A DNA stretch of 64,000 bases from NCBI GenBank assembly GCA_963733715.1, contig CAVTEN010000004.1, positions 75,109-139,108 of the forward strand, read 5' to 3'. The DNA is from an uncultured delta proteobacterium (GTDB lineage: Bacteria > Desulfobacterota > Binatia > Binatales > Binataceae). The position numbers were made by a program, and so were the translations under genes. The notes beneath the pieces are model-generated. The model was not told the origin of the DNA, searched no databases, and saw only the letters and a list, made by a program, of their open reading frames with translations. This document shows, one piece after another, positions 37,085 to 56,530 of the stretch. Numbering within the stretch: position 1 is the stretch's first letter; each line of letters opens with the position of its first letter.

Positions 37085-38026
37085 CTATTTTCCAAGGAGA
37101 GCAGCGGCGCCACGCGCAAGCATCTTTTCCGCGAGCCGTTTGCCGGAATTTTCGGCGGCGAACGGCGCATAGAGTGCGTCGATCGGTTGCTTTATCGATT
37201 CGGATAGCTCTCCCGCGCCGTCGAGGCTGAATAGCATCGCCTCTAATACGAGCCTGTTGCCCACGATGCTTGCCCTCACTCCCACCGGTGTCGTGCATGA
37301 CGCTTCGATCGCGGCGAGGAACGCTCGCTCGGCCGCAGTCTCATAAAACGCGCGCGCCTCGTTGATCCCCGACAGCGCACGATCGAGTTCATCGCCTTTG
37401 CGATCGGCCAACGTTTCGATCGCGAGTGCGCCCTGCCCGCCGGCTGGAATAAAGTCGCCTGCATCGAGCTCGACGAACTTTACATCTTTGACCCGGCCCA
37501 ACCGCTTAAGACCCGCCATCGCGACTATGATCGCGTCGAAGGTGCCGTCGGCCACGCGAGCCAGCCGCGTATCGACGTTGCCGCGCAACGGCAGTATCTC
37601 GAGTCCGCGATTTATCCTGAGTGCCTGGAAGCGGCGGCGCGACGACGACGTTCCAAGCCGCGCGCCCGCGGGCAGCGCGGACAGCGTCGAGCCGTCGCGC
37701 GTCACCAGAATATCGGACGTATTCTCGCGCCCCGGCACGGCGGCTACGCGAAATTGCGATGGCAGCAGGGCAGGGAGATCCTTCATCGAATGGACGGCAG
37801 CGTCGATCGTGCGATTGGCGAGCGCCTGCTCGAGCTCTTTTATGAAGAGTCCTTTGCCGCCGACATCCGCGAGCGATGCGGACGTCATCTTGTCGCCGCT
37901 GGTCCGTATCTCGACGATTTCAATTTCGATTCCGGAAATTTGCGCGAGTAGGCAGTCACGTACTATCGACGCCTGAGCGAGTGCCAATTTGCTGGGGCGC
38001 GAACCGATTCTAATTTTCAGTGGCAT
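37085..38026 (-). CDS. hemC: Hydroxymethylbilane synthase (porphobilinogen deaminase)
   Basis: IRIGSRPSKLALAQA, IRTSGDK, GGKGLFIKELE, HSMKDLP, RGNVDTRL. Confidence 0.9.
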   Translation of the reverse strand: MPLKIRIGSRPSKLALAQASIVRDCLLAQISGIEIEIVEIRTSGDKMTSASLADVGGKGLFIKELEQALANRTIDAAVHSMKDLPALLPSQFRVAAVPGRENTSDILVTRDGSTLSALPAGARLGTSSSRRRFQALRINRGLEILPLRGNVDTRLARVADGTFDAIIVAMAGLKRLGRVKDVKFVELDAGDFIPAGGQGALAIETLADRKGDELDRALSGINEARAFYETAAERAFLAAIEASCTTPVGVRASIVGNRLVLEAMLFSLDGAGELSESIKQPIDALYAPFAAENSGKRLAEKMLARGAAALLGK

Positions 38027-38033
38027 CGAAGAA

Positions 38034-38075
38034 CCTAACCCCTAACCCCTTCCCTCGAGGGAAGGGGAACAATCG
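38034..38075 (-). repeat. Family B repeat (inverted) in the hemA-hemC intergenic spacer
   Basis: CCTAACCCCTAACCCCTTCCCTCGAGGGAAGGGGAACAATCG. It sits inside the operon between the hemA stop (38103) and the hemC start (38026). Confidence 0.85.
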
Positions 38076-38102
38076 TATACCGGGGGTCAACGCGAGGGGC
38101 GG

Positions 38103-39434
38103 TCACTCGAGGTCCGCGTCGTCGTCATCGTTGTCGTCGAGGGCGTCGTCCTGGGCGTCGAATTCGGCGCCGAGCAGGCGGCGCGCGACTTCGGCGGCGA
38201 ATGCGGCGTCGAGAGTCTTGTCGTCGCGCTGCTTCAGCCCCGACAGAATCCTGTGAAGCAGCTTGTTTGTGAGTCCGCGCGTCAATAATACAACTCGCTC
38301 GCGTTCGGCGGGGCCGAGCTGCGCCATCCACCCGCGCGCGCGGCCCAGCTCGTCGTCGCGCAATCGCTCGACGCTGTAGCGGATGTCCTTGATGGTCGGC
38401 GTCAGGTCCAGGCCAGCGAGCCATTTGAGGAACGAATCGAGCTCGAGCTCGACGATCTGTTCGGCCTTTTCGGCTTCGCGTTCGCGGTCTCCAAGCGATC
38501 GTTGAACCAGCGCGCCGAGATCGTCGATATCGTACAGATACACATTTTGCAGCGCGTTTAGCCGCTCGTCGAAATTGCGCGGCACGCCCATGTCGATCAG
38601 AAACATCGGCCGGTAGCGGCGCTCTCGAATCACCGACTCGAATTCGTCGGGCCCCAGGATTGGCTTGGTCGAGGAGACCGAACCGATCAGCACGTCCACC
38701 ATCTTGAGATAAGGTTTGTAGTTATCGTACGGCACGGCGGTGCCGCCGAGGTCGCGCGCGAGCGCGACTGCACGATCGAAAGTGCGCGATGTAATCAGGA
38801 TCGACTCGACTCCGAGCGCTCCGAGTTGCCGCGCGGTCAACTCCGCCATCTTGCCCGCACCCATCAGCATCACGGTCTTGTCTTTGAGCGTGTCGAAAAT
38901 CTGGCCCGCCAGCGCGACCGCCGCGCTGCTGACGGATACCGAACCGTGACCGATGAGCGTGCCCCGGCGCACGCGCTTGGCTACCGTGAACGCCTTGTGG
39001 AACGCGCGATGCAAAATCAACCCGACGCTGCGCGCCGCGGACGCCTGCGCATACGCGAGCTTGAGCTGACCCAGTATTTGCGGCTCGCCGACGACCATCG
39101 AATCGAGACTCGCGCCGACGCGGAACAGATGGCGCGCGGCGTCGCGGCCGGCGAAACTGTAAACTGCATCGGCGAACTCGGTCTGCGCGACTCGTCTGTC
39201 AGCGGACAAAAATTTGAGCGTCTCATCCGCCGCTCGCGATGCATCGATGGCGACTCCTACTACCTCGACGCGATTGCAGGTCGAAATCAGCGCCACCTCG
39301 GTCACACCGGACGACGATTCGCGCAGCCGACCGAGCGCGGCCACGATCTCATCGTCGGCAAACGCAAGCCGCTCGCGCAACGCGACCGCCGCGCTGCGAT
39401 GGTTTATTCCCACGATGAATAGCGTCTGATCCAT
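38103..39434 (-). CDS. hemA: Glutamyl-tRNA reductase
   Basis: FIVGINHRSAAVALRERLAF, LISTCNRVEV (active-site Cys), MLMGAGKMAEL. Acidic tail DDALDDNDDDDADLE. Confidence 0.9.
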   Translation of the reverse strand: MDQTLFIVGINHRSAAVALRERLAFADDEIVAALGRLRESSSGVTEVALISTCNRVEVVGVAIDASRAADETLKFLSADRRVAQTEFADAVYSFAGRDAARHLFRVGASLDSMVVGEPQILGQLKLAYAQASAARSVGLILHRAFHKAFTVAKRVRRGTLIGHGSVSVSSAAVALAGQIFDTLKDKTVMLMGAGKMAELTARQLGALGVESILITSRTFDRAVALARDLGGTAVPYDNYKPYLKMVDVLIGSVSSTKPILGPDEFESVIRERRYRPMFLIDMGVPRNFDERLNALQNVYLYDIDDLGALVQRSLGDREREAEKAEQIVELELDSFLKWLAGLDLTPTIKDIRYSVERLRDDELGRARGWMAQLGPAERERVVLLTRGLTNKLLHRILSGLKQRDDKTLDAAFAAEVARRLLGAEFDAQDDALDDNDDDDADLE

Positions 39435-39441
39435 TTTGACG

Positions 39442-40269
39442 TCAGCCGAAACTGCCGCCGTGCTTGCCCGGAAAAATCAGGTTAACGCCCACGAACGAGC
39501 CAACCAACACGCTCGCCAGCACGATTGTGAGCGCCGCCGCGCGCCGCCCGCGCCATCCTACGGTGAGGCGCGATTCGAGCAGGCCCGCGTATAAGATCCA
39601 AATCACCAGCGACCACGATTCTTTGGGCTCCCACGACCAGAAATGGCCCCAGGTCGCGTCGGCCCAGATCGCGCCGCTGACGATCGCCAGGCTCAGCATC
39701 ACGAAGCCCCATCCCAGCAACCGATAATTGATTCGGTCGAGCTTTTCGAGACTCGGCGCACCTTCGTTGGCGGGACCGAGCGCGCGTTTCGATTTGAGCC
39801 GCGACTCGTACGCGAGGTAAACGATACTCACGCTCGCCGCCAGCACGAACATCGTGTAGCCGAGGATTGCGAGCGTCACGTGAATCGGCAGCCATACGCT
39901 GCGAAGCGTCTCCGGCAAAACCAGCCGCCCGCTGCTGGTCGCGAGCGAGGCCGCTCCCAGGGCTATAGTCACCGCCGGCGCGACGAACGCGCCAATCACC
40001 GCGAGCCTGAGGCGTACGATCATCAGCAGGCCGGCCAGCGCGGTAAGCCACGCCAGAAAGGAGAGCGCCTGCGCAAAATTCGCCACCGGAATATTGCCCG
40101 CCTGCAGGCCGCGCGCGGTCAAATCAAACGCATGAAAGATCGCGCCGGCGCCAAGGATCGCAACCGCGTAGCCGGTTGCGCGGGTGCGGCCCGACGAACG
40201 ATCGAACACAAACAACGCGGCCGAAAGCGCGTAGCACGCGAGCGCCGGCAATAGCCACAATGTATCCAT
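39442..40269 (-). CDS. CcsA/HemX-like cytochrome c assembly family membrane protein
   Basis: ATG 40267-40269 (MDTLWLLPALA). Trp-rich motif WADATWGHFWSWEPKESWSLVIW. Its position between sirC and hemA mirrors hemX in hemAXCDBL-type operons. Confidence 0.75.
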   Translation of the reverse strand: MDTLWLLPALACYALSAALFVFDRSSGRTRATGYAVAILGAGAIFHAFDLTARGLQAGNIPVANFAQALSFLAWLTALAGLLMIVRLRLAVIGAFVAPAVTIALGAASLATSSGRLVLPETLRSVWLPIHVTLAILGYTMFVLAASVSIVYLAYESRLKSKRALGPANEGAPSLEKLDRINYRLLGWGFVMLSLAIVSGAIWADATWGHFWSWEPKESWSLVIWILYAGLLESRLTVGWRGRRAAALTIVLASVLVGSFVGVNLIFPGKHGGSFG

Positions 40270-40285
40270 CGGATTTTTCAGTTTT

Positions 40286-40963
40286 TCACTGAGAGTCTTC
40301 GGCCAGCGCCAGTCCAAGCGCCGCCAGACCGACACCATCACCAAGACAACTAGCAAGAATCCGCTCGATTGCGGCAACGTCGCCAACGGCGATCGCGTCG
40401 GGCAGCGCGGAGTCGGCGAGTTCTTTCAGTCGTCGCATTCGATCCGCTGGATCTATTTCGTCGGCGTGCAATCGAAGGCGCGCCGCGCGCAACACTTTGA
40501 GCGTGAGCGCGTGCTCGGTACCGAACCGATCCTCCAACTCGCGTCTGAGGCGCGCAGCAAATGCGGGCGACGCGCCGCCGGTCGAAATTGCTATCTGAAG
40601 ATCGCCACGATTCACAACCGCGGGCGAGATGAACGTACACAACTCGGGAACGTCGACTACATTTATCGGGATCCCGAGCGCACGCGCCTCCGCGACCAGC
40701 GCGCGATGCAATTTCGGATCGTCGGTTGCTGCGTATACCAGTACGCATCCGCGGATATCGCCGCGCTCGTAGCCGCGGGCGATATGCGTCACCAGCCCGC
40801 GCGCGGCCATTGACTCCAGCTGCCGCGACAGGCGCGGACTCACGACTGTTACCTGGGCGCCAGCATTCAGCAACGCCTCGATTTTGCGCGCGGCAACCTC
40901 GCCGCCACCGACCACCACGCATTCGCGGCCGGTTACGTCGAGAAATATCGGAATGTATCCCAT
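40286..40963 (-). CDS. sirC: Precorrin-2 dehydrogenase / sirohydrochlorin ferrochelatase (SirC / CysG N-domain type)
   Basis: IPIFLDVTGRECVVVGGGEVAARKIEALLNAGAQVTVVSP, ATDDPKLHRALV, GDLQIAISTGGASPAFA. Confidence 0.85.
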   Translation of the reverse strand: MGYIPIFLDVTGRECVVVGGGEVAARKIEALLNAGAQVTVVSPRLSRQLESMAARGLVTHIARGYERGDIRGCVLVYAATDDPKLHRALVAEARALGIPINVVDVPELCTFISPAVVNRGDLQIAISTGGASPAFAARLRRELEDRFGTEHALTLKVLRAARLRLHADEIDPADRMRRLKELADSALPDAIAVGDVAAIERILASCLGDGVGLAALGLALAEDSQ

Positions 40964-40996
40964 GAAACTTACGCGATTTTATTACATGATGACGTG

Positions 40997-41410
40997 ATGA
41001 GACAGTCCCAAAAGCCCGACGCGCCGTCGTCCAACGATTCTATTATTCGAGCACTGAATCAAACCCGCGGGACTGTGCTCTGCGCGCGACTCGAGAACGC
41101 CGGCGGTCTCGCGGGCCAGGGCCGCGGCTTGCTCGGTCGCGACGGCCTCGAGCCGGGAACAGGGATGCTATTCGAGAATGGGCGATTCACCCCGTTCATG
41201 TGGATGCACATGTTCTTCATGCGCTTCGCGATCGATATCGTTTTCCTGGGACGGGGCAATACCGTCATCAGGATCAATCGTCGGCTGAAGCCGTGGCGAG
41301 TGTCCTCCGTCGTATTCGGGGCGCGAAACGCACTGGAGCTTCCGGCGGGCGCGTCGGACGACAGTTCAACACAGGTGGGAGATCAGATCGTGTTCGAAGC
41401 GATAGAGTAG
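40997..41410 (+). CDS. DUF192 family protein
   Basis: RGLLGRDGLEPGTGMLFENGRFTPFMWMHMFFMRFAIDIVFL..ALELPAG..VGDQIVF. GTG 40994 is also possible. Confidence 0.75.
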   Translation: MRQSQKPDAPSSNDSIIRALNQTRGTVLCARLENAGGLAGQGRGLLGRDGLEPGTGMLFENGRFTPFMWMHMFFMRFAIDIVFLGRGNTVIRINRRLKPWRVSSVVFGARNALELPAGASDDSSTQVGDQIVFEAIE

Positions 41411-41682
41411 GCGTCCGCAATTCGTCCAAAGAACAACCTCATCTAGATTTCTCCAAGTCAGGGCCTATTTAGTGGTGCGATTCGAGGCACCCACCATGGA
41501 TTGACATTCATCGCTAAGCTCATCTATATCGAATCAAGGCCTCTTTGACCGTCTTAGATTTCCAGAAATAGTCCCTCTATGCCTATCTCTGTTGCGGGCT
41601 CGCAACCAACAGTTGCATCACTGCGGCTGCCGTAATCCGCTTTGAAATGAAAAAGTTGAAGGAATTGCTCGATAGATCAAGA

Positions 41683-41698
41683 TGGCACGAGAGATGCT
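41683..41698 (+). promoter_or_regulatory. Candidate sigma-54 (-24/-12) promoter upstream of flp1
   Basis: TGGCACGAGAGATGCT versus consensus TGGCACG-N4-TTGCW. GG and GC are at the canonical spacing, with one mismatch in the -12 box. It lies 183 nt upstream of the flp1 ATG. A sigma-54 activator is encoded at 51007..52491. Confidence 0.5.
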
Positions 41699-41880
41699 CA
41701 CGATACGTCTCGCCTTGGCACAGTAAAAGTTGCCACAAGCGAAGCTCGCGCTCGTCGGGGGAGGAAATGGACTGAACGGTCGCGTGGCGTCGCCGGACCG
41801 TAAGTTGGAAAGCTCGAATAACTAATGGGGACAATGGCCAATTTCGGCCAATTAAACAGACTGAAGGAGGATACGGGACA

Positions 41881-42051
41881 ATGGACAAGATCATCGGAAT
41901 GTTTGTGAAGGCTCGGGAGTTTCAGAAGGGACAGACGATGGCTGAGTACGCCCTGATCATGGCCGCCGTCGCGGTCGTAGTGTTCGTCGGCTACCAGACG
42001 ATGGGCACGACCATCACCACGCTGCTCAGCACCGTGGACAGCAAACTCTAA
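41881..42051 (+). CDS. flp: Flp/Fap-family type IVb prepilin, copy 1
   Basis: Not in the ORF track (56 aa). MDKIIGMFVKAREFQKGQTMAEYALIMAAVAVVVFVGYQTMGTTITTLLSTVDSKL. Flp motif G/QTMAEYALI. GGAGG sits 10 nt upstream. Confidence 0.9.
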   Translation: MDKIIGMFVKAREFQKGQTMAEYALIMAAVAVVVFVGYQTMGTTITTLLSTVDSKL

Positions 42052-42146
42052 TCGAAAGGCGACGTCTCGGGGTGGCGCGCTAACAGTTCGCCACCCCAAA
42101 AATCGACAACCAGCGCGAAAATTGGCGCGCGGAGGAAACAAACAAC

Positions 42147-42317
42147 ATGAATGCAATCACCAAACTAGTTGTCCGGGCGCGCGAATTTCAGCGTGGCCAG
42201 ACCATGGCCGAGTACGCGCTGATCATGGCCGCCGTCGCGGTTGTAGTGTTCGTCGGCTACCAGACCATGGGCACGACCATCACCACGCTGCTGAGCACCG
42301 TGGACAGCAAGCTCTAA
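42147..42317 (+). CDS. flp: Flp/Fap-family type IVb prepilin, copy 2
   Basis: MNAITKLVVRAREFQRGQTMAEYALIMAAVAVVVFVGYQTMGTTITTLLSTVDSKL. The mature part is identical to copy 1, with synonymous differences only. SD GGAGG. Confidence 0.9.
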   Translation: MNAITKLVVRAREFQRGQTMAEYALIMAAVAVVVFVGYQTMGTTITTLLSTVDSKL

Positions 42318-42397
42318 ATTCGAGAACTGTGAATCATGGATGGCGGACTAACCCATCCGCCACCCACATTAAACACAAGCGGGTTGAGGAGGAATTC

Positions 42398-42568
42398 ATG
42401 CGATCGATCACGAAGTTGGTAGTGCAGGCCCGCGAATTTCAGCGTGGCCAGACCATGGCCGAGTACGCGCTGATCATGGCAGCGGTGGCCGTCGTCGTTT
42501 TCGTGGGCTATCAGACGATGGGCACGACGATTACGACGCTGTTGTCCACCGTTGACAGTAGCCTGTAG
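42398..42568 (+). CDS. flp: Flp/Fap-family type IVb prepilin, copy 3
   Basis: Last 56 codons of track ORF 42122..42568. MRSITKLVVQAREFQRGQTMAEYALIMAAVAVVVFVGYQTMGTTITTLLSTVDSSL. SD GAGGAGG. Confidence 0.9.
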   Translation: MRSITKLVVQAREFQRGQTMAEYALIMAAVAVVVFVGYQTMGTTITTLLSTVDSSL

Positions 42569-42679
42569 TCATCCGATGGCCTGACGGTCGTCAGGGAGGC
42601 TCTCTTAGCGGGGGTTGGTGACCCAACCCCCCACTAGGAGTTCACTCCAGGAGCGCGACCACCTTGGGAGGGGAAGTCG

Positions 42680-42850
42680 ATGAGCCGGCGGAAGGGAATT
42701 TATAAATTAACTGCAACCTCGCAGGGTCAGACTATGACCGAGTATGCTCTGATACTCGCGACAATCGCTCTGATATCGACCGCACTTGTCCAGAATGCGG
42801 GCACTATCATCAATACGCTAACTATTCGCGTGGTTAATCTGTTTCAGTAG
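42680..42850 (+). CDS. flp: Divergent Flp-family prepilin, copy 4
   Basis: MSRRKGIYKLTATSQGQTMTEYALILATIALISTALVQNAGTIINTLTIRVVNLFQ. It keeps GQTMTEYALIL. Visibly lower GC and different codon usage from copies 1-3. Confidence 0.8.
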   Translation: MSRRKGIYKLTATSQGQTMTEYALILATIALISTALVQNAGTIINTLTIRVVNLFQ

Positions 42851-43085
42851 GCCACGTGGTATTTCAGGAAAATCTGTGATGACGGCCAGCTCAAATCCGC
42901 TCTACAAGGGTAATTTTAGGAAGATCTACACTACAAATACGACTATTCTTGGCTCGGGCTTGCTAATCAATTCCACTGCCAGCCTGGCTGATGCTGAAGC
43001 TACTTTTAAGATGTACAAGATGCTAGGATGCGCAACGATTCTTTGAAGTTAGCCGGCCGTCACACGGTCGGAGGGGAGGGGTAAT

Positions 43086-44192
43086 ATGAGACGACCGATG
43101 GTATTCGTCTTGCTCGCGGGGTTGGCGGCGATGCTCGCTTCGGTGATGGTGTACTCCGCCTTGAAGCGGAGAGAAGCCGAAGTTCAGAACGCGATGTCGC
43201 ACAACGTCGAGGTAGTGGTCGCGGCGTACGATCTCCCACTCGGCACCAAGATCGATCTGGGCGAAGTGAAATTGGCGCGCTGGTCGGCCGACAGTCTGCC
43301 CGAAGGTGCGTACACCGATCCCCACCAGGTCATCGGCAGCTACGTGAAGAACTCGTTGGTAGCCAACGAGCCAATCGTGCAGGCCAAGCTGTTCACCGGG
43401 GACAAGACGGCGGGCGTGATGCCCTTGCTGATTCCTTTCGGGATGCGCGCCGTATCGGTTCCGGTGGATGAGGTCAGCGATGTCGCGGGCTTCGTGCTGC
43501 CGCATACTCGCGTCGACGTGCTCGTTGCGACCCAGGGCGAAGGCTCTGGCGCAGGCGATAAATCGTTCTCGAAAGTGATTCTGCAGAACGTCGAAGTGCT
43601 CGCGGTAGCGCAGGAAGTCGAACAAAAGAAAGACGAGCCGCAAATCGTGAAAGTCGTCACGCTGCTGGTGACGCCGCAGGAGTCCGAGCGCCTGGCGCTT
43701 GCGAGTCATTCGGGAACGCTGCGCCTCGCGATGCGCAACTACAATGATAACAAGATCGTTCTGACCAGCGGCAGCGACGTCGCGCAGATGCTGCGGGCGT
43801 ACAGTCTGGCGCCTGACGTTCCGGTGATGGCGGTACAGCCTGAGCCTCGTCACGTGGCCGTCGCGGTACCGCATCGGCGCAAGGCGGTCGAGATCGAGAT
43901 TCTCCGCAACGGCAAATCGTCCGAGTCCGTGTCGTTTGTGAATGAAGCGGCAGCGGATGTCGACGGCTCGAGCAAGTCAGTGGGCCATATCCGCAAGGCG
44001 GCGGTGAAAGACGACGAAGACACCGCTGACGACGCAACCGACGCCAGCGCCGATGCGACAGGTGCAACGACGGTGGCGAGCGCTCCCGCGCCCGAGCGTC
44101 ACGACCTTGCGGCGCCCATCGTTGTTCCGGCCGGCGCACCCAACGCGACGGCGGATCACGTGCCGACGCCTAAGACGATCGACATACCTTAA
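43086..44192 (+). CDS. cpaB: Flp pilus assembly protein CpaB/RcpC
   Basis: N-terminal TM MVFVLLAGLAAMLASVMVY. SAF-like VVVAAYDLPLGTKIDLGEVKLARW. RcpC-like MRAVSVPVDEVSDVAGFVLPHTRVDVLV..LQNVEVLAV. Acidic/Ala-rich tail. Confidence 0.85.
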   Translation: MRRPMVFVLLAGLAAMLASVMVYSALKRREAEVQNAMSHNVEVVVAAYDLPLGTKIDLGEVKLARWSADSLPEGAYTDPHQVIGSYVKNSLVANEPIVQAKLFTGDKTAGVMPLLIPFGMRAVSVPVDEVSDVAGFVLPHTRVDVLVATQGEGSGAGDKSFSKVILQNVEVLAVAQEVEQKKDEPQIVKVVTLLVTPQESERLALASHSGTLRLAMRNYNDNKIVLTSGSDVAQMLRAYSLAPDVPVMAVQPEPRHVAVAVPHRRKAVEIEILRNGKSSESVSFVNEAAADVDGSSKSVGHIRKAAVKDDEDTADDATDASADATGATTVASAPAPERHDLAAPIVVPAGAPNATADHVPTPKTIDIP

Positions 44193-44213: not shown

Positions 44214-46121
44214 GTGAAGAAGATGAAACCAACACGAGGATGTGGACTGCTTCCGTGGCTAGTTGCTGCTTTCAGCATGCTCATGCTTCGGCCCGGCCTG
44301 CTGTATGCGGACGACGGCACGACAATGGCTCTCGCCTTGAATGCTGGCGAGAGTTACGTAATCAACAACGTCAGCCCCGGCGAAGCGCCGGCTGTGAACG
44401 TGATCACAAACCCGCATGCACTGGTGGTGCATAACGAGGAGCCGGGCAAGGTTGTCCTCCTAGGTGCAGAAGCGGGCGAATGGACCGTCGCGGTCAAGAC
44501 CACTGATGGCAGCACCGTTAAGTATGATGTGACGGTTAAGTCGGTCGCCAACATCAAAGACATCAATAATCCCGGCAAAGCCCCGGGACCAATCGAGGGT
44601 ACCGGCGCGACCACTGGCAGCGCGGCTCCTGTCGTAGCCAAGATGGATCCGGGCACAGGTCCGGTTGCATCGCCTTCGTCACCCGCTTCGATTTCTTCAT
44701 CGGCTTCGTCTGCTTCCTCATCTTCAGGAAGCTATACGACCACGACCGATACGGTGGCGGCCGCTTCGCCCAGCGCGCCGGTAGCGGCAGCGCCCGGAGT
44801 TGCAACACCTCCCGCTCCTATCAGCCACTCGACCTTTGACTTTGCTCCTTCGTCTCCGGCCGCTTCCTACGCGCCTCCGGCGCCGTCGAGTCAGACCGCT
44901 TCGGCATCGCTGTCGAACGAGCGGTATCGGGTCGATCCGTCTGTCAGTCTGAATGGCGGCGAATTGCGCTCGGGTGCAGTGTCTGGCGGACGGCATTACC
45001 TGCCCGAAGACGGAGTGCAGTTGCAGACCGGGAGCTCGAGAATAATCGACTTTGCAAGCAAGCTCCGCCGCGTGTCGATCGCCGATACGACGGTCGCGGA
45101 CATCCAGGTAATCAATCCGTTCCAGGTCAATCTGATTGGCCATAAGCCGGGCTTCACGACACTTGCGGTTTGGGACCAGACCGGGCAGTACCAGGAGCGC
45201 CCGGTGCGAATCGATCCCAACGGCAAACAGCAGGTGTTGCTCAACACGATGGTGGCGGAGCTGGATCGTTCTGCAATCGAGAACCAGGGAACTAACATTT
45301 CGGTCGCGCTCGCCCGAGCAGGAATATCGCTGGTTGGATTGCCGGGTGCGGTGGCGACACCGTTCAACCCGTCGACGAGCATCACCTCTCCTTCCGGGGT
45401 GGTCACTACCTCTGGTAATTCGCTGGTTGCTCCCGGATCCCTTAACTCGCTGATCCTGTCGCAGGGGATGACTTATGGTTTAGCGGTGGGAAACAGTAAT
45501 TATCAGCTCCAGGGATTTTTCCAGTACCTCGAGAACCACCAGCTCGCAAAGATTCTCGCGCAGCCGCATCTGCTGGCGAATTCAGGTGAAGAAGCAAAGT
45601 TTCTGTCTGGCGGCGAAATTCCAATCGTGCTCGCACAGGCTCTTAATACTTCGATCGTATTCAAACAGTTCGGCACTTCGGTTGAATTCGTTCCGACTGT
45701 CATAGGCCGCAATGATATCGAGCTGCTCGTGAAGCCCGAAGTATCGGAACCCGATTTTGCCCACGGTGTGCAGCTGTTCGGCTTCAGCGTCCCGGCATTC
45801 GTGACTCGGCGCGCTGAGACCCTGGTGCAGATGAAGGACAATCAGACGTTGATCATCGCGGGCCTGATTCTGCACGAAAAGAAGACGCAGATTCAGAAAG
45901 TCCCATACATAGGCGACGTCCCTTACATCGGCGGACTGTTCCGCAACACCAGCTATTCGAACACCGAAACCGACCTCGTGATGAGTGTAACCCCGCAAAT
46001 CGTGCAGCCGCTGCCCGATGGCGCCTCGGTTTACAACCCGACTTCGGTGCCCGATCTGACGCGTGAGCAGATCGAGACCCGTCGCCTGGCGCAGCCGGAC
46101 ATTACACGGCCTAGATTTTAG
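44214..46121 (+). CDS. cpaC: CpaC/RcpA secretin
   Basis: Two pilus-N-type domains (..VINNVSPGEAPAVNVITNPHALVV.. and ..RVSIADTTVADIQVINPFQVNLIGHKPGFTTLAVW). Secretin core LANSGEEAKFLSGGEIPIV..FKQFGTSVEF..VPYIGDVPYIGGLFR. Confidence 0.88.
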   Translation: MKKMKPTRGCGLLPWLVAAFSMLMLRPGLLYADDGTTMALALNAGESYVINNVSPGEAPAVNVITNPHALVVHNEEPGKVVLLGAEAGEWTVAVKTTDGSTVKYDVTVKSVANIKDINNPGKAPGPIEGTGATTGSAAPVVAKMDPGTGPVASPSSPASISSSASSASSSSGSYTTTTDTVAAASPSAPVAAAPGVATPPAPISHSTFDFAPSSPAASYAPPAPSSQTASASLSNERYRVDPSVSLNGGELRSGAVSGGRHYLPEDGVQLQTGSSRIIDFASKLRRVSIADTTVADIQVINPFQVNLIGHKPGFTTLAVWDQTGQYQERPVRIDPNGKQQVLLNTMVAELDRSAIENQGTNISVALARAGISLVGLPGAVATPFNPSTSITSPSGVVTTSGNSLVAPGSLNSLILSQGMTYGLAVGNSNYQLQGFFQYLENHQLAKILAQPHLLANSGEEAKFLSGGEIPIVLAQALNTSIVFKQFGTSVEFVPTVIGRNDIELLVKPEVSEPDFAHGVQLFGFSVPAFVTRRAETLVQMKDNQTLIIAGLILHEKKTQIQKVPYIGDVPYIGGLFRNTSYSNTETDLVMSVTPQIVQPLPDGASVYNPTSVPDLTREQIETRRLAQPDITRPRF

Positions 46122-46198: not shown

Positions 46199-47422
46199 GT
46201 GTCATCGCTCGGTAAAAAAAATGATGGAAGGCACGGCGGGCTGAAAGTTCAATTGGTCGGCCAAAGCGACGACCATCGGACGGAAGTCCGGGACGCTTTG
46301 GCCGCCTTGGGCGACCCCGTGCTGAACATCAATGAAATCGAACCGGATCCGGATGTCGCCACTGACGTCAACTTTGACGTTACGATGGTGGTTTTCAACG
46401 GCAACGACGAACTATCTCTGAGCTATCTCAATACCCGGGCGGGGCAAGAGCCTCGTCCGGCTCTTTTTGCGCTACTGCACGATCGTTCCCCCGATCTGAT
46501 GAAGCGGGTGCTGAGGGCGGGAGCCGATGAGCTCCTGTTCCTGCCGCTGGATCCGGGCGACGCTACCCGCGCACTGCTCAAGATAAGCGAAACCCGCCGT
46601 CGCGAAGAAGTTCACGTCGGAGGAGGCACCATCGTTTCGATGGTGAGCCTGATCGGCGGCACCGGGGTGACGAGCCTGGCGGCTAACCTCGCGCTGGCGC
46701 TGCGCTACGCGTTCGACAAACGGGTGGCAGTAGTCGATCTCGATCTGCAAACGGGTGGGCTCTCGGTGTTTCTGAATCTCGAGCCCGAGCGCACGATCAT
46801 GACGCTGACCGAGGGAACGCGAAAGCTCGATTCGATTCAACTCGAATCGGCGCTCAGCAAGCACGCGTCCGGAATCTACCTGCTGGCGGCACCCAAGCGG
46901 ATCGAAGACAGCGAATTGGTCACCGACGCTACGGTCGGTGCGACGCTCGAGCTGATGCGCCAGTTGTTCGACTTCGTGATCGTGGATTGCGGCACGCATA
47001 TCGACTCGAACACGGTCGCGGCGTGGGAGCGATCGAATCATCTGTTTTACGTGCTCGACCAGTCGATCGGCGCGGCGCGATGCGCCTGGCGATTCGTCGA
47101 TCTGGTGGGACGGCTGGGGCTGCAGGGAATCGAGCCCAACTTCATTCTAAGCCGCTTCGTGCCCGGTCATCCGATCACCGAAGATCAGCTGAGCCATACT
47201 CTGGCCAAAGCGATTCACACGCGTATTCCGCGCGATGAAAAAGTTCTCGAGCGCGTGCAGTTGAGCGCACAGGATTTGTGGCAGGTAGCGCCGAACTCGC
47301 CGCTGGCCAAGAGTGTCGAGGACCTGGCGCGACGGCTCGAAGTCGGCAACGAAATCCCCGATAACGATTCCTCGAATTCTCTGGTTTCGCGCCTCTTGAA
47401 TGTTATCGGCGCGCGCAATTGA
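46199..47422 (+). CDS. tadZ: TadZ/CpaE: pseudo-receiver + ParA/MinD-like ATPase
   Basis: N-terminal receiver-like fold without an obvious phospho-Asp pocket. Deviant Walker A SLIGGTGVTSLAANLA..VVDLDLQTGG. Confidence 0.85.
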   Translation: MSSLGKKNDGRHGGLKVQLVGQSDDHRTEVRDALAALGDPVLNINEIEPDPDVATDVNFDVTMVVFNGNDELSLSYLNTRAGQEPRPALFALLHDRSPDLMKRVLRAGADELLFLPLDPGDATRALLKISETRRREEVHVGGGTIVSMVSLIGGTGVTSLAANLALALRYAFDKRVAVVDLDLQTGGLSVFLNLEPERTIMTLTEGTRKLDSIQLESALSKHASGIYLLAAPKRIEDSELVTDATVGATLELMRQLFDFVIVDCGTHIDSNTVAAWERSNHLFYVLDQSIGAARCAWRFVDLVGRLGLQGIEPNFILSRFVPGHPITEDQLSHTLAKAIHTRIPRDEKVLERVQLSAQDLWQVAPNSPLAKSVEDLARRLEVGNEIPDNDSSNSLVSRLLNVIGARN

Positions 47423-47431
47423 GGTACCACA

Positions 47432-48808
47432 ATGAAGCTGGTTGAGAGAATCTCGCAGCAGAACGCCGCAACGCCGGCGCCGTTCCAGCGTTCGCTGATG
47501 AGTAACGGCGCCGCCAAGCGTACTGTCAAAGACGCGCAGGCCGAAGGATTTCAGCAGCTCAAACTCGCGGTCCACAACCGCCTGTTTGAGATGTTGGACG
47601 TTACCCGGCTTGAGAGCCTCGAGCCGGTGCTGGCGGCGCAGAAGGTCACCGAAGCTATCTCCGCGATTCTCGACGACGAGGGACGGCTGCTCACCGACAT
47701 CGACAAGACTCACCTCATCGAAGAGATCAAAAACGAGCTGCTCGGACTCGGGCCGCTCGAGCCGCTTCTGTGGGACGATGAAATCACCGATATCCTGGTC
47801 AACGGGCATAACCAGGTTTACGTCGAAAAGCGCGGCAAGCTCCACACCACCGAGGTCAAGTTTCAGGACGATCAGCACTTGATGCTGATCATCGATCGGA
47901 TCGTGTCGCAGGTCGGACGCCGGGTCGACGAAGCGTCGCCGATGGTCGATGCGCGCTTGCCCGACGGTTCTCGTATCAACGCGATCATTCCGCCGCTGGC
48001 GCTCGATGGACCGGCGCTCTCGATTCGCCGATTCGGCCGCAAGCGCTTCAACATCGACGACCTGGTCGAGAAGAAGACCGTCGTACCCGAGATTGTCGAG
48101 TTCCTGCGCACGATCGTTCGCGCGCGCCTCAACATCCTGGTTTGCGGCGGCACCGGCTCCGGCAAAACGACCATGCTCAACTGCTTGTCGCTGTTTATCC
48201 CGGCCGACGAGCGAATCGTGACGATCGAGGACTCCGCGGAACTGAGTCTTCAGCAGCCGCACGTGGTCAGGCTCGAAACGCGGCCGGCGAACGTCGAAGG
48301 CAAGGGCGAAGTCAGTCAGCGCGACCTGGTCAAGAACACCCTGCGTATGCGGCCGGACCGCATTATCGTCGGCGAGGTCCGCGGCGGCGAAGTGTTCGAC
48401 ATGTTGCAGGCGATGTCGACCGGTCATGACGGGTCAATCGCGACTATCCACGCCAACACTCCCCGCGACAGCATGGGACGCCTCGAGATGATGATGCTGC
48501 TGTCGGGCGTACAGATTCCGCAGCGCGCGATGCGCCAGCAAATCGCGTCCGCACTCAACATCATCGTTCACGTTTCGCGTCTGTCAGACGGCTCGCGCAA
48601 AATATTGCGCATCTCCGAGATCAGCGGAATGGAAGGCGAGATGGTGATGATGCAGGATCTGTTCGAGTTCAAGCGCACCGGAATCGGACCGGGCGGCGAA
48701 GTGCTCGGCGCGTTTATCGCCACCGGAATTCGTTCAACCTACTCGCAGCGGCTCGAGGCTGCGGGATACAAACTCGACGGCAAAATCTTCCGCAACACTA
48801 TCGGATAA
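47432..48808 (+). CDS. tadA: TadA/CpaF secretion ATPase
   Basis: ITDILVNG, Walker [49 protein letters not shown]. Confidence 0.92.
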
Positions 48809-48813
48809 ATACT

Positions 48814-49761
48814 ATGGATTTTTTGATGGCAAGCGGAATATTCGCGCTCGTCTTCATGGGCGTGCTGATATTTACCAGCAGTCGCGGCACTGAAGTCGAG
48901 CAATCGCGCGAGGTGGCCCGGCGCCTGACCCGACCCCCCGACGAGATAGAAGTCAACGTCATGCGCAAGCAGCGGCCCCAGGAGGGAGTGCTGCTGGGCG
49001 CTCTGTACAGGATGAACCTGCTGCGCAAACTCGAAGAGGCGATGTGGCAGGCCGGCATGTACATGAGGGTCGGCGACATCCTGCTGATCATCGTGCTGGC
49101 ATTCGGCGCGGGTTTGTTCGGTGGCAATCTCTTCTTCCACGACATCTGGTTCGGTGTGATTACCGGCCTGGTCACTGGCGCGATGCCACTGTTCTACATC
49201 CAATTCATGAAGAAGCGGCGGTTGAAGGCCTTCGCAGCTCAGTTGCCGTTCGCACTTGACCTCATCAAATCGTCGCTCGAGGCGGGCCATTCGCTGCAGC
49301 GCGCTATGCAAGTTCTGGTCAGCGAGTTCGCCGATCCGCTGGGCGCCGAATTCCGCACCGTGCTCGAGCAGAACCGGATTGGACTGCCGCTGCCACGCGC
49401 GCTCGAGGACATGCTCAAGCGAGTTCCCGAGGATGACCTCCGCCTGCTGGTCGTCGCGGTGCGGGTCCAAACGGAAGTTGGATCGAGCCTGGCGCAAATT
49501 GTCGGTCGACTCTCCGAAATCGTACGAATCAGGCAGCGCTTGCGGATGCAAATCCGGGCACTGACCGCTCAATCGCGCATGGGCGGCATGGTGGTCGGGA
49601 TCCTGCCGATCATCGTGCTTACAATATTCAGCGTGGTTCAACCGGGCTATACGGATAAATTGTTCCATGACCCAACCGGTCAGAAGATTTTGAAATTTGC
49701 GATCGGTTCGGACCTGCTCGCTCTGATCACCATCAGGCGACTACTGAAGGTGGACTACTAG
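48814..49761 (+). CDS. tadB: TadB (type II secretion F-family inner-membrane platform protein)
   Basis: QLPFALDLIKSSLEAGHSLQRAM..RALTAQSRMGGMVVGILP. Confidence 0.85.
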   Translation: MDFLMASGIFALVFMGVLIFTSSRGTEVEQSREVARRLTRPPDEIEVNVMRKQRPQEGVLLGALYRMNLLRKLEEAMWQAGMYMRVGDILLIIVLAFGAGLFGGNLFFHDIWFGVITGLVTGAMPLFYIQFMKKRRLKAFAAQLPFALDLIKSSLEAGHSLQRAMQVLVSEFADPLGAEFRTVLEQNRIGLPLPRALEDMLKRVPEDDLRLLVVAVRVQTEVGSSLAQIVGRLSEIVRIRQRLRMQIRALTAQSRMGGMVVGILPIIVLTIFSVVQPGYTDKLFHDPTGQKILKFAIGSDLLALITIRRLLKVDY

Positions 49762-49762
49762 T

Positions 49763-50698
49763 ATGAGCCCATTCATGATTGGCGTCGGGGTCTTTCTCCT
49801 GGCCGGCGGCGCATGTGTGGCCCTCTATTTCGCCATCTCGCCGCAAAACCGGGCGGTCGATGAACGCTTCGCGGATTTGGCGGTCCAAATGCGAGCCTCG
49901 CAGGGGGCGCTCGCCGGTGACAACCAGGACGAGACCCTGCTCCGCATGCTTTTCAGATGGGCCGCCAAGCGAGTGCCGCCGCCTAACCTGGATAGTCCCA
50001 CCGGAGAAAAGCTGCAGCAGACCCTGGTGCAGGCAGGATTTATCAAGTCCACCGCGCCGCAGACCTATCAGGTCGCCCGTGTACTGCTGGCGGTAGGATG
50101 CGGCGTCATTGGACTGCTGTTCGGAGCCATTTTTCACCCGGCATCGGCTACTCCGCTGCTGCTCGGAGTTGGCGGCGTCGGAATCGGAATCTTCGTACCC
50201 AGCTACTATTTGGGACGGCGCGCGCGTATCCGGCAGGGCGCCATCGCAAAGCAGCTCTCGGACGTGCTCGATCTGCTGGTGGTATGCGTCGAAGCGGGCA
50301 TGGGGTTGTTCGAGGCGATTCGAATCGTCGGCACAGAATGCGAACGTCATGGGCAGGAAATCGGTTTCGAGCTGAACCTCGTTGCAACCGATATTTCCGC
50401 AGGTGCGAGCCTTGGACAGGCGTTACGCGGGCTCGCCGACCGGACTGCAGTGGAGGATATCAAGCCGCTCGCCGCGACCTTGATCCAGAGCGAGCAACTT
50501 GGTGCGCAGATCGGACCCGCGTTGCGCGCCAGCTCCGATGCATTGCGCCAGCGGCGCCGGCTGCATGCCGAGGAAAGCGCGCAGAAGGCATCGATTAAGA
50601 TATTGTTCCCGCTGGTCATCTTCGTGTTGCCCTCGATGATGGCGGTGATCATCGGACCTGCAATGATCTCGGTCCTCCATACGCTCTCGAATCAGTGA
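49763..50698 (+). CDS. tadC: TadC (type II secretion F-family platform protein)
   Basis: QLSDVLDLLVVCVEAGMGLFEAI..LRQRRRLHAEESAQKASIKILFPLVIFVLPSMM. Confidence 0.85.
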   Translation: MSPFMIGVGVFLLAGGACVALYFAISPQNRAVDERFADLAVQMRASQGALAGDNQDETLLRMLFRWAAKRVPPPNLDSPTGEKLQQTLVQAGFIKSTAPQTYQVARVLLAVGCGVIGLLFGAIFHPASATPLLLGVGGVGIGIFVPSYYLGRRARIRQGAIAKQLSDVLDLLVVCVEAGMGLFEAIRIVGTECERHGQEIGFELNLVATDISAGASLGQALRGLADRTAVEDIKPLAATLIQSEQLGAQIGPALRASSDALRQRRRLHAEESAQKASIKILFPLVIFVLPSMMAVIIGPAMISVLHTLSNQ

Positions 50699-51006: not shown

Positions 51007-52491
<1,485 letters not shown>

Positions 52492-54715: not shown

Positions 54716-55081
54716 CTACCAGCGGTTGCGATTTCCACCGCCGCCACCGCCTTCTCTGCCGCCACCGCCACCGCCGCCACCACGCCGGCGATCTCCGCCT
54801 CCGCCACCTCCACCGCCGCCACGCGGGCCGCCGGTGCTGGCGCGAGCCTCGTCAATCTTGATTCGCCGTCCCTTCAGGTCGGTGTCGTTGAGCGTCTGGA
54901 TTGCAGTGGCCGCATCGGCCGCCTCCACCATCTCGACGAAACCGAAGCCGCGCGACTGTCCCGAGAATTTGTCGGAGACCACTACCGCGCTTTCGACTTT
55001 CCCAGCCTGTCCAAAGAGCTCCGCCAGGTCATCCTGCGTAACCGCGTAGGCGAGATTGCCTACATACAACTTAGTGGGCAT
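54716..55081 (-). CDS. RRM-type RNA-binding protein with Gly/Arg-rich tail
   Basis: ATG 55079-55081 follows AAGGAGGG. RNP-2 LYVGNL, RNP-1 RGFGFVEM. Tail GGPRGGGGGGGGGDRRRGGGGGGGGREGGGGGGNRNRW. Confidence 0.88.
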   Translation of the reverse strand: MPTKLYVGNLAYAVTQDDLAELFGQAGKVESAVVVSDKFSGQSRGFGFVEMVEAADAATAIQTLNDTDLKGRRIKIDEARASTGGPRGGGGGGGGGDRRRGGGGGGGGREGGGGGGNRNRW

Positions 55082-55229
55082 AAAAGCCCTCCTTACTTTT
55101 TGCCGGGAAGCTCCTAAACAGACGACCATCCGGGAAGACCGGGATCCGAGAGAAAGGCGGCGTCCGAGGCATGTTAGATCCTAGAAATAAAGATAGGCGC
55201 GAGGCAATTCTGAGTAAAGTCGGAACCGG

Positions 55230-56530
55230 GAACGCCTTGGGAAACGTAGTGCGGCTGCTCACCCGCCACGCGAGGACGAGCGTCGGCCTTGTATGTTGCG
55301 GTCAGAGTCCGAAGATGGAGTAGGACGAGGGCGCGGCAGGCCGATTCGGCCTGGGTCGATAGAGACCGTGGGAGAGCGTGGTCGCCGCGCCCATAACTCC
55401 GGCCAGGAGCCCGAACAGTCGCTGGGGCGGCGCACGGCGCAGAGCCCGAATCGCGCAAGGATGGGCGGCGCCGGAACCAGTGGAGGCGGTAGGATGGAAG
55501 CAGCGGTGGTGGTTGGAATCGATGTGAGCAAGCGCACGCTGGAAGTAGCGTTGTCCAGTGGCGGCGGCTTCAGCGTTGCGAACAACGAAGACGGGATCGG
55601 CGAGCTGCTGGTGCGGCTGCGGCAAAGCGGCGCCGCGCTGGTAGTGCTGGAAGCCTCGGGTGGATATGAGAGCCCAGCCTATCTGGCGCTGTGGGAGGCC
55701 GGGGTGCCGACCGCGCTAATCAATCCGCGCGATGCCTATCACTTCGCCCAAGCCAATCGGCAATTGGCTAAAACCGATCAGCTCGATGCGCGCGGGTTAT
55801 GTGAGTTTGGCTTGCGCATGCAGCCCGAACCGTTGCCTCCGCCGGAGGCGGCGGATGAAGAACTCAAAGCCCTGGCCGTGCGCCGGCGCCAAGTAGTCAA
55901 GATGCTGGCGGCGGAGCGCACCCGGGTGCAGCAGGCGCCGCGCTCAGTGCGGTCCAGCGTCAAGCGCATCGTCCGGGCGCTGGAGCGCGAGCTCGGTGCG
56001 GTCGACCATCAGATCGAACAACGCCTGCGGGACAATCCGCGCCTGGCGCACCGCTGCGCGCAACTCGAACAGGTGCCGGGACTGGGGCCGGTGACCGGCG
56101 CGATCCTGGTCAGCCGGTTGCCCGAGCTGGGTCTGCTCGGGCCCAAGCAGATCGCGGCGCTGGTCGGAGTCGCACCGTATGACCATCAAAGCGGTGAGTG
56201 GCGCGGGCGCAGCTCGATCTTCGGCGGCCGCGCCGAGGTGCGCAGCGCCCTGTATATGGCCACCCTGTCCGCGATTCGCTGTAACCCGGTGTTGCGCAGC
56301 TTTTATCGCCGGCTGCGGGCGGCAGGTAAACCGGCCAAGGTCGCCATCATCGCAGCCATGCGCAAACTACTGGTCATCCTCAACGCGATGCTCAAAACCA
56401 ACTCGCCCTGGAGGCCTCCATGCGCAATCACCGTCTAGCTAACCGGTTGTCCACAAGTCCACAGGCGGGGTCCTTCCCTGGACCCCACAGCCTGTGGACC
56501 CTGTGGGCAACCCGCTTACCTTGACTGCCA
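55230..56530 (+). mobile_element. IS110-family insertion sequence (boundaries approximate)
   Basis: Single DEDD-type transposase ORF with about 260 nt of structured non-coding sequence upstream and about 90 nt of hairpin-rich sequence downstream. No terminal inverted repeats were seen, as expected for IS110. The ends are not mapped. Confidence 0.5.
55494..56438 (+). CDS. IS110-family transposase/recombinase
   Basis: ATG 55494. VVVGIDVSKRTLEVAL, VVLEASGGYE, AKTDQLDA, VPGLGPVTGAILV, AGKPAKVAIIAAMRKLLVILNAML. Confidence 0.9.
   Translation: MEAAVVVGIDVSKRTLEVALSSGGGFSVANNEDGIGELLVRLRQSGAALVVLEASGGYESPAYLALWEAGVPTALINPRDAYHFAQANRQLAKTDQLDARGLCEFGLRMQPEPLPPPEAADEELKALAVRRRQVVKMLAAERTRVQQAPRSVRSSVKRIVRALERELGAVDHQIEQRLRDNPRLAHRCAQLEQVPGLGPVTGAILVSRLPELGLLGPKQIAALVGVAPYDHQSGEWRGRSSIFGGRAEVRSALYMATLSAIRCNPVLRSFYRRLRAAGKPAKVAIIAAMRKLLVILNAMLKTNSPWRPPCAITV

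Follow-up and report, generated by a model that had tools for sequence, protein, structure and literature searches.

Three old pilin isogenes and a divergent fourth pilin gene head a Tad pilus operon of Candidatus Binatus behind a predicted sigma-54 promoter

That tad operons can begin with tandem flp genes is well established, and the flp-1/flp-2 tad locus of Aggregatibacter actinomycetemcomitans is reportedly comparable to the one described here. In Haemophilus ducreyi, a flp1-flp2-flp3-...-rcp-tad operon encodes Flp proteins of differing predicted size (9.3, 8.9 and 9.9 kDa; PMC3201912). In the Tad pilus of the Caulobacter crescentus PilA/Cpa system (PDB 8U1K), phage PhiCb5 makes contact with exposed C-terminal residues of the pilin; these contacts are altered by natural substitutions at the pilin C terminus, which the authors suggest contributes to the resistance of a non-host strain (PMC11067988). 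Here we analyse a 64-kb stretch of contig CAVTEN010000004.1 from an uncultured bacterium of the Binataceae (the whole stretch is called the window; G+C content 0.61), in which four small pilin genes, flp1 to flp4, stand in tandem. By homology, on which the public annotation of the locus already relies, these genes form the pilin end of an operon for a Tad (Flp, type IVb/IVc) pilus, and the organism is a soil bacterium of Candidatus Binatus (Binataceae, Binatota).

The locus resembles that of H. ducreyi in that tandem flp genes with a G/XXXXEY motif head a polycistronic tad operon, followed by genes of the rcpC/cpaB, secretin, tadZ, tadA, tadB and tadC types. It differs in three respects: the H. 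ducreyi Flps vary in size, whereas three of the Binatus genes encode the same mature peptide; the H. ducreyi operon is regulated by CpxR and not by sigma-54; and the Binatus locus, from an uncultured Binatota soil bacterium, has no adjacent tadV or tadD-G. Compared with Caulobacter, which has a single pilA, a cpaA peptidase gene in its locus and a 45-amino-acid (aa) mature pilin, the Binatus mature pilin measures 39 aa. As in 8U1K and the Flp pilin structures 8U2B/8UCR, it would form one amphipathic helix with its N terminus in the filament core and its C terminus pointing outward.

The explanation that we favour, with a probability of about 0.8, is a Tad operon read as one sigma-54-dependent transcript, with three old isogenes for the major pilin, a fourth gene for a minor or alternative pilin, and hairpins that favour the pilin message. 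A sigma-54 promoter with an upstream activator site would drive a transcript running flp1-flp2-flp3-flp4-cpaB-cpaC-cpaE-cpaF-tadB-tadC, and the NtrC-type regulator encoded beside tadC would probably serve the activator site. Cleavage at G17/Q18 would release the same 39-aa alpha-helical major pilin from flp1, flp2 and flp3, with one penultimate change in Flp3; as three genes encode the same mature pilin, the array most likely multiplies the supply of major pilin. The flp4 product would probably be a minor or alternative pilin. The G+C-rich stem-loops after each major gene would act as 3'-end stabilisers or as partial barriers to read-through, and pilin message would then outnumber machinery message. 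Very strong purifying selection acts on the mature part, whereas the leaders, which are cleaved off, can diverge; gene conversion has in addition exchanged the mature parts of flp1 and flp2; and, across species, the predicted exposed C-terminal third of the mature pilin changes jointly in all copies of a genome.

Several observations weigh against this explanation. Copy 4 scores 18.7 bits (E = 0.0015) against the Pfam pilin family Flp_Fap (PF04964), which is under the cut-off. None of the hairpins in the array was called by a scan for intrinsic terminators, and their stems are followed by A-rich or mixed sequence and not by a U-tract. A Pfam scan of about 47 open reading frames (ORFs) in the window, which did not take in every ORF, found no Peptidase_A24 (TadV/CpaA), and no TadD or TadE/F/G homologue turned up in this incomplete scan; pilin processing and assembly would therefore rest on genes elsewhere in the genome. 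Finally, the leaders are conserved within each copy type, so the copies may not be simply redundant.

Each of the four genes is preceded by a strong Shine-Dalgarno sequence (GAAGGAGGA, GCGGAGGAA, TGAGGAGGAA and TGGGAGGGG for flp1 to flp4, respectively) and carries a processing motif, G17/QTMAEYAL in copies 1-3 and G16/QTMTEYAL in copy 4, which forms a G/XXXXEY site ahead of a hydrophobic helix (G17/QTMAEYALIMAAVAVVVFVG in copies 1-3 and G16/QTMTEYALILATIALIS in copy 4). Four 171-nt genes with their own Shine-Dalgarno sequences and the motif G/QTM(A/T)EYAL had been read in the array by a first-pass annotation made from the letters and an ORF track, and all of these elements were found. That annotation also rightly called a 148-aa ORF at 42122-42568 an artefact: it is a TTG-start, in-frame upstream extension of copy 3 that traverses copy 2 in another frame. 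The genes were 'hidden', as it put it, only with respect to that ORF track, as NCBI and JGI already name such proteins Flp family type IVb pilin. The proposed search with Flp_Fap placed copies 1-3 at 39.2-39.5 bits, above the cut-off of 32.2; copy 4 itself fell below it, although 35 of 40 flp4 orthologues match the family at E <= 0.01 (best E = 1.3e-7). A database search returned 1194 relatives, and identity is 82% or more throughout the best 120, with public names such as 'Flp pilus assembly pilin Flp' and 'Flp family type IVb pilin [Candidatus Binatus sp.]'. Against NCBIfam, the pilins gave only a spurious sub-threshold match to a small membrane protein. The nearest solved structures by sequence were the Tad pilins 8U1K and 8U2B, a weak match (E = 0.045); because the alignment to mature PilA in 8U1K begins at T19, we placed cleavage at G17/Q18, which leaves a mature pilin of 39 aa. 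The link to pilus machinery that had been proposed was borne out by the tad/cpa genes directly 3' of the array on the same strand (Table 1), whose order is kept in related loci.

Control of type IVa pilin genes by sigma-54 and PilR-type regulators is known from the pilA genes of Pseudomonas, Myxococcus and Geobacter. The Binatus array shares with these a -24/-12 promoter before the major pilin gene, an upstream activator site and an NtrC-family response regulator; it differs in that the promoter would govern a Flp/Tad (type IVb/c) array, and the regulator gene lies after tadC with no adjacent sensor kinase identified. When both strands of the 64-kb window were scored out of 12 against TGGCACG-N4-TTGCW with exact spacing, the element at 41683-41698 was the sole site reaching at least 11/12. 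Of 57 loci, 56 have a site of at least 9/12 (nearly all 10 or 11) at a distance of 52-360 nt before their first flp gene, and the element is invariant in an alignment of 17 species. The same scored scan found no comparable site before copies 2-4, and one transcript from one regulated promoter would thus be the simplest reading. The half-sites of the putative activator site are also invariant in the 17 aligned species, distant Binataceae included, which makes it a likely binding site for an enhancer-binding protein. In at least 29 loci the gene for the NtrC-type regulator keeps its place after tadC; its product is probably the activator of the flp promoter and would bind at 41590-41617.

Intercistronic stem-loops set differential messenger RNA stability in, for example, E. 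coli papBA and the Rhodobacter puf operon. The Binatus array resembles these in having a stable hairpin without a U-tract directly after a highly needed structural gene and upstream of lesser-needed genes; it differs in that the hairpin is repeated after each isogene. Two types can be distinguished. The type-A hairpin (consensus GGGTGGCGG-ACTAACCCA-TCCGCCACC) stands in every spacer that follows a non-final major copy and is kept in 39 spacers with compensatory changes. Its motif occurs once in the window (0 expected), and in related 21-kb loci 18 of 18 matches fall inside flp arrays, which rules out a genome-wide repeat of the repetitive extragenic palindrome (REP) kind. The type-B hairpin stands between the last major flp gene and flp4. 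In 26 species its paired cells amount to 90.4% against 75.5% in shuffles, compensatory changes are present in 9 of 10 pairs, and its covariation score is 0.56 compared with 0.27 for shuffled and <=0.25 for slid alignments. The first-pass annotation had described G+C-rich hairpins without U-tracts after copies 1, 2 and 3; these fold, are conserved and covary. The array hairpins are real structures under selection. They would, at a best guess, protect pilin messages at their 3' ends or damp read-through, and it is plausible that they tune the ratio of pilin to machinery transcript, as had been suggested. The conserved type-A loop ACTAACCCA could instead be a protein-binding site. A scan of 41300-43200 against Rfam gave only two sub-threshold chance matches.

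We next consider how the copies differ. Over the mature part (codons 18-56) we counted 7 synonymous and 0 non-synonymous codons between copies 1 and 2, 18 and 1 between copies 2 and 3, and 19 and 1 between copies 1 and 3. One of the 18 'synonymous' pairs is Ser AGC against TCC, which are not linked by a single synonymous step, so the Nei-Gojobori method gives 17 synonymous (Sd) and 4 non-synonymous (Nd) differences for copies 2 and 3. These comparisons reproduced the synonymous counts of the first-pass annotation (7, and 18 against 1) and its observation that the leaders differ. Its statement that the mature peptides of copies 1-3 are alike but for K or S also stood, except that the residue concerned, 55, is the penultimate one and becomes the third-last only if the stop codon is counted. 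At the DNA level the mature part of flp3 differs from those of flp2 and flp1 at 21-23 of 117 nt (80-82% identical), and whole genes differ at 28-44 of 171 nt. The 17 leader codons hold 8 (1 versus 2), 8 (1 versus 3) and 3 (2 versus 3) non-synonymous differences. Repeat similarity is limited to the coding parts of the array.

The ratio of non-synonymous to synonymous divergence (dN/dS; Nei-Gojobori, mature part) points to strong purifying selection, in keeping with the codon-alignment check that had been proposed. For flp3 against flp1 it is 0.048 (Sd 18, Nd 5, dS 1.24, p = 2e-9), and for flp3 against flp2 it is 0.044 (dS 1.07, p = 3.5e-9). For flp2 and flp3, dN between close strains is near 0 and dS is 0.02-0.2. 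flp1 and flp2 are closer to each other (Sd 7, Nd 0, dS 0.285), and their proportion of synonymous differences (pS) falls from 0.76 in the leader to 0.24 in the mature part (p = 0.008). This heterogeneity marks them as a mosaic pair, in which the mature part was homogenised by conversion more recently than the leader; copies 1 and 2 are thus alike partly because of gene conversion limited to the mature part. The earlier proposal of long-term purifying selection on each copy was therefore right about the strength of selection and the age of the copies, but taken alone it misses both this conversion and a between-species change that is matched within each genome.

To place the array among its relatives, we assembled 60 Binataceae loci (one genome per species, with CpaB) and 80 loci from a metagenome scan. 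In their layout, one to three flp genes of the major type are followed by a single copy-4-type gene and then by cpaB, which is the answer to the copy-number comparison that the first-pass annotation had called for. Leader types are copy-specific and common across species (MDKIT..FVK in the first copy, M.AITKLVVRARE in later copies), and the same holds for the stop codons and for the last residues (xKL versus xSL or xNL), so that the copies must have arisen by duplication before these species separated. Several loci bear footprints of copy loss, which indicate that copy number varies by clean deletion between repeats: the first codons of a deleted flp3 remain at L010:9341-9592 (ATGCTCGCGATCACGAAGTTGGCAGTG), two type-A hairpins stand in tandem at L007:9184-9315, and type-A and type-B hairpins stand back to back at L047:2129-2297 and L066:3112-3285. 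Separately, we observed major-type flp genes with frameshifted or truncated C termini (for example ...TTVDGNRSRSMA) at L016:9305-9490 (= L092:2305), L064:9238-9423, L088:2302 and L090:1718; these are either decaying genes or sequencing errors in metagenome-assembled genomes (MAGs).

It is possible that the major copies are specialised, with copy-specific leaders or 5' regions that alter translation, membrane insertion, processing or regulation, so that the array holds three 'delivery versions' of one pilin. Consistent with this, leader types are kept among orthologues, that of flp1 included: leaders of orthologues differ at 3-4.7 of 16 amino acids, against 8 between paralogues 1 and 2 or 1 and 3. 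Three-copy arrays persist in several species, and the spacers differ in structure. The small stem directly before the flp2 ribosome-binding site, for example, is conserved there only; its ACGCGAAAAATTATCGCGCGGAGGA recurs in several species solely in the flp1-flp2 spacer and could modulate flp2 translation. Yet the number of major copies ranges from one to three between species through clean deletions, as the L010 remnant and the doubled hairpin of L007 illustrate, so none is indispensable; only one sigma-54 promoter is detectable; and the leader is removed from the product. We regard specialisation as rather unlikely, and dosage as the better account of the array.

The more interesting part of the locus is its evolutionary pattern. 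In eight three-copy genomes, we compared differences between paralogues of the same genome with those between the same copy types paired across genomes, over the mature core, using derangements of the genome labels. Copies 1 and 3 differed by 2 amino acids within genomes and 15.0 across them, compared with 129 and 122.7 +/- 4.9 synonymous differences; for copies 2 and 3 the values were 4 within and 16.4 across (synonymous, 115 and 114.9); and for copies 1 and 2 they were 2 within and 16.6 across (synonymous, 93 and 107.6 +/- 3.4). No derangement of the genome labels came near the observed amino-acid totals. The leaders of these genomes showed no excess of within-genome similarity. A second clade, with two copies, behaved in the same way, with 18 amino-acid differences within genomes against 55.5 across, and synonymous fractions of 0.361 against 0.383 +/- 0.028.

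Because synonymous divergence between paralogues lies at the saturation level set by codon usage (0.435), at which old conversion would be invisible, the whole-core synonymous comparison is weak, and we therefore added nearest-neighbour and per-column tests. In the stricter design, the first and last major copies of 64 non-redundant arrays were compared within each genome and with its nearest neighbour only. Core amino-acid differences averaged 1.73 within and 3.12 across (lower within in 39 arrays, equal in 18 and higher in 7; Wilcoxon p = 2e-7), whereas synonymous fractions were 0.428 and 0.435 (p = 0.17). Nearest-neighbour orthologues differ at far fewer synonymous sites, which indicates that those sites are unsaturated at this scale. 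Judged at synonymous sites, concerted evolution driven by gene conversion is seen for flp1 and flp2, and is not seen for flp3 against flp1/2 or for the first against the last copies of the 64 arrays. Across these arrays, then, co-expressed paralogues appear to keep their secreted product identical across speciation without detectable homogenisation of their DNA.

We then examined columns in which the two copies agree within a genome, and likewise within its neighbour, but on a different residue in each. In these 87 co-substituted columns the codons of the two copies were identical at a rate of 0.57, close to the baseline of 0.54 (p = 0.58), and where an array gave no sign of conversion, the two copies had reached the shared residue through different nucleotide changes in 25 of 42 co-substitutions. 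About 17 lineages have AGY and TCN serine codons in different copies of the same genome. The array described here is one such case: Ser50 is AGC in flp1 and flp2 and TCC in flp3, and the close relative L072 has Thr at this position (ACA, ACC and ACC in flp1, flp2 and flp3), so Thr would have become Ser by a second-position change in flp1/2 and by a first-position change in flp3 (that is, ACC to AGC and ACC to TCC). In two strain-level relatives (L005:294-464 and L006:502-672) flp1 alone has Thr54 (ACC) and flp2/flp3 have Ser54, which could be a transient state of the kind expected if each copy is substituted in parallel. The co-substituted sites cluster at residues 40-51, with two more at 54 and 55, and they would lie in the C-terminal third equivalent to the exposed part of the Caulobacter pilin. 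These tests bear on genes that are only 39 codons long and on lineages many of which are related.

Gene conversion drives concerted evolution in, for example, bacterial tufA/tufB, and histones and ubiquitin are said to exemplify birth-and-death under strong purifying selection. The mature parts of flp1 and flp2 behave as converted duplicates in the manner of tufA/tufB, and flp3 resembles the histone case in that it encodes the same protein as flp1/2 with saturated synonymous sites; however, histones are invariant between species, whereas Flp differs between species and matches within a genome. Neither model alone predicts the Flp pattern. We propose, at about even odds, that these old isogenes, diverged as they are in DNA, owe their common mature major pilin to selection rather than to DNA exchange, and that whenever the exposed C-terminal part changes in a lineage the same replacement is fixed separately in each copy. 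Parallel substitution and conversion probably both act. If parallel substitution is correct, a mixed pilin pool would be harmful, possibly because an old-type subunit still offers a receptor to phages or predators, or because it upsets filament packing. The locus would then be a clean natural example of selection for subunit uniformity in a homopolymer, and it would offer a route to the residues under lineage-specific pressure on the pilus surface. A literature search restricted to open-access papers, which is weak evidence, found nothing on Binatota pili or on pilin paralogues that evolve in this way.

Alternatively, the pattern may reflect ordinary concerted evolution at the DNA level, with repeated conversion among all three major copies whose tracts were later masked by synonymous drift. 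Conversion is clear between flp1 and flp2 and also in some other arrays, which have near-identical copies or low synonymous divergence (copies 1-2 of L015, and L017, L020, L021, L025, L041, L090 and L145). Saturation at 0.435 would hide old tracts, and codon identity next to co-substituted sites is slightly above the baseline (0.58 versus 0.47, p = 0.11), which leaves room for very short tracts. Repeated conversion of this kind does not sit well with the synonymous totals of flp3 against flp1/2, which are the same within genomes as across them, or with the 64 arrays, where the sites compared are unsaturated between nearest neighbours. The same is true of the baseline codon identity in the co-substituted columns, of the separate nucleotide changes behind most co-substitutions, and of the AGY/TCN serines, those at residue 50 of this array among them. 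At 80-82% identity, moreover, a mismatch occurs about every 6 nt, which would leave little uninterrupted homology for RecA. We consider conversion throughout an unlikely explanation.

The fourth gene has a history of its own. A copy-4-type gene stands before cpaB in 48 genome loci, distant clades included, and the family shares position, motif and a characteristic C terminus (..VGPLL or ..TLF). Its dN/dS between strains is 0.3-0.76. It is an old paralogue whose C-terminal half is evolving faster, plausibly encoding a minor or alternative pilin. The first-pass annotation correctly described copy 4 as diverged and lower in G+C, and had offered foreign acquisition as one of its explanations. Its G+C content is indeed 0.47, against 0.57-0.60 for copies 1-3, its G+C content at third codon positions (GC3) is 0.54 against 0.80-0.86, and the low-G+C stretch continues to 43050. 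But across the Binataceae cpaB is preceded by a gene that matches flp4 in position, motif and C-terminal signature, and a lower GC3 is common to the whole family (0.639, n = 48, versus 0.787, n = 95, for major copies), which makes horizontal acquisition very improbable as the cause of the low G+C. At L013:9645-9764, three major flp genes and a type-B hairpin are present and a profile search detected no copy-4-type gene; flp4 may have been lost there or have strongly diverged.

Neither an assembly artefact nor a very recent duplication is a credible source of the array: metagenome assemblies are known to go wrong at tandem near-repeats, but the copies differ at more than a tenth of their nucleotides, dS is about 1 for flp3 against flp1/2, and the same array recurs in dozens of MAGs, megabase-scale contigs included, and in separate JGI and ENA short-read assemblies (the exact Flp2 protein on six independent JGI and ENA metagenome contigs), a cross-assembly agreement on orthologous copy-specific features that refutes an artefact and upholds the first-pass annotation on both counts. 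Promoter and activator site, one to three major isogenes, a conserved divergent pilin and covarying array-specific hairpins together make up the first described picture of Binataceae pilus genetics.

Table 1. Features of the flp array and its surroundings (positions in the window).
Feature	Position	Strand	Description
DUF192 (COG1430) gene	40994..41410	+	Pfam DUF192 64.7 bits; directly upstream of the flp promoter region
Putative upstream activator site	41590..41617	+	TGTTGC-N6-GCAAC-N5-GTTGCA; inverted repeat plus third half-site, ~90 nt upstream of the -24 element
Predicted sigma-54-type promoter	41683..41698	+	TGGCACGAGAGATGCT; -24 GG / -12 GC, canonical spacing; score 11/12; 198 nt before flp1
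flp1	41881..42051	+	171 nt including stop; 56-aa prepilin from ATG; leader MDKIIGMFVKAREFQKG; 39-aa mature pilin; Flp_Fap 39.5 bits
Type-A hairpin after flp1	42069..42097	+	GGGGTGGCG...CGCCACCCC; spacer fold z = -3.0; no U-tract
Small GCGCG/CGCGC stem, A-rich loop	42110..42132	+	In minimum-free-energy structure; directly before flp2 Shine-Dalgarno sequence
flp2	42147..42317	+	171 nt including stop; 56 aa from ATG; leader MNAITKLVVRAREFQRG; mature pilin same as that of flp1
Type-A hairpin after flp2	42337..42366	+	TGG-TGGCGGA-CTAACCCA-TCCGCCA-CCA; encloses the hairpin first placed at 42342-42361
flp3	42398..42568	+	171 nt including stop; 56 aa from ATG; leader MRSITKLVVQAREFQRG; mature pilin departs from flp1/2 at residue 55 only (S for K)
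Small hairpin after flp3	42578..42595	+	CCTGAC-GGTC-GTCAGG; from folding; sequence kept in relatives
Type-B hairpin	42602..42640	+	Covarying helix 42604-42613 / 42629-42638; encloses the hairpin first placed at 42610-42631
flp4	42680..42850	+	171 nt including stop; 56 aa from ATG; divergent Flp-type prepilin, G16/QTMTEYAL
AT-rich spacer before cpaB	42851..43085	+	G+C 0.43-0.48; conserved DNA; contains 55-aa ORF 42879-43046
cpaB/rcpC	43086..44192	+	RcpC 98 bits; SAF domain
cpaC/rcpA secretin	44214..46121	+	Secretin 130 bits; T2SS-T3SS_pil_N
cpaE/tadZ-like ParA/MinD-family ATPase	46199..47422	+	AAA_31, CbiA; CpaE_hom_Actino weak match
cpaF/tadA secretion ATPase	47432..48808	+	T2SSE 215 bits
tadB platform protein	48814..49761	+	T2SSF domain
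tadC platform protein	49763..50698	+	T2SSF domain
NtrC-family response regulator / sigma-54 activator	51007..52491	-	Response_reg, Sigma54_activat, HTH_8; GSFTGA motif at residue 225; convergent with tadC

The AT-rich spacer between flp4 and cpaB may be a regulatory region for cpaB. The ORF that it contains is called as a gene on related contigs by gene callers, and we considered it as a fifth small gene of the array. However, its dN/dS between strains is 0.77-1.32, its frame is broken in five related loci (L008, L010, L011, L012 and L013) and it has no Pfam or NCBIfam match; it is probably non-coding. The same spacer holds a conserved DNA motif, TGGCTCGGGCTTGCTAA at 42950-42966, that would resemble a -24/-12 element for sigma-54 if its spacer were one base longer. 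As sigma-54 sites we rejected the conserved TGGCTCGGGCTTGC at 42950, whose spacing is wrong (GG-N9-GC), and TGGCAC...TTGCC at 41712, which is also wrongly spaced (GG-N13-GC). A scan for consensus promoters and terminators gave counts at chance level.

Upstream of the array, the DUF192 gene is present in 44 related loci too (tblastn), and a functional link to the Tad system is possible. Further upstream, a haem-synthesis cluster at 37085-40963 on the minus strand encodes porphobilinogen deaminase, glutamyl-tRNA reductase, a cytochrome c assembly protein and a sirohaem synthase domain protein. On the other side of the operon, the small protein encoded at 54716-55129 on the minus strand carries an RNA recognition motif of eukaryote type (RRM_1, 78.6 bits), and an IS110-family transposase gene (DEDD_Tnp_IS110 and Transposase_20) lies at 55293-56438, about 3 kb past the gene for the sigma-54 activator.

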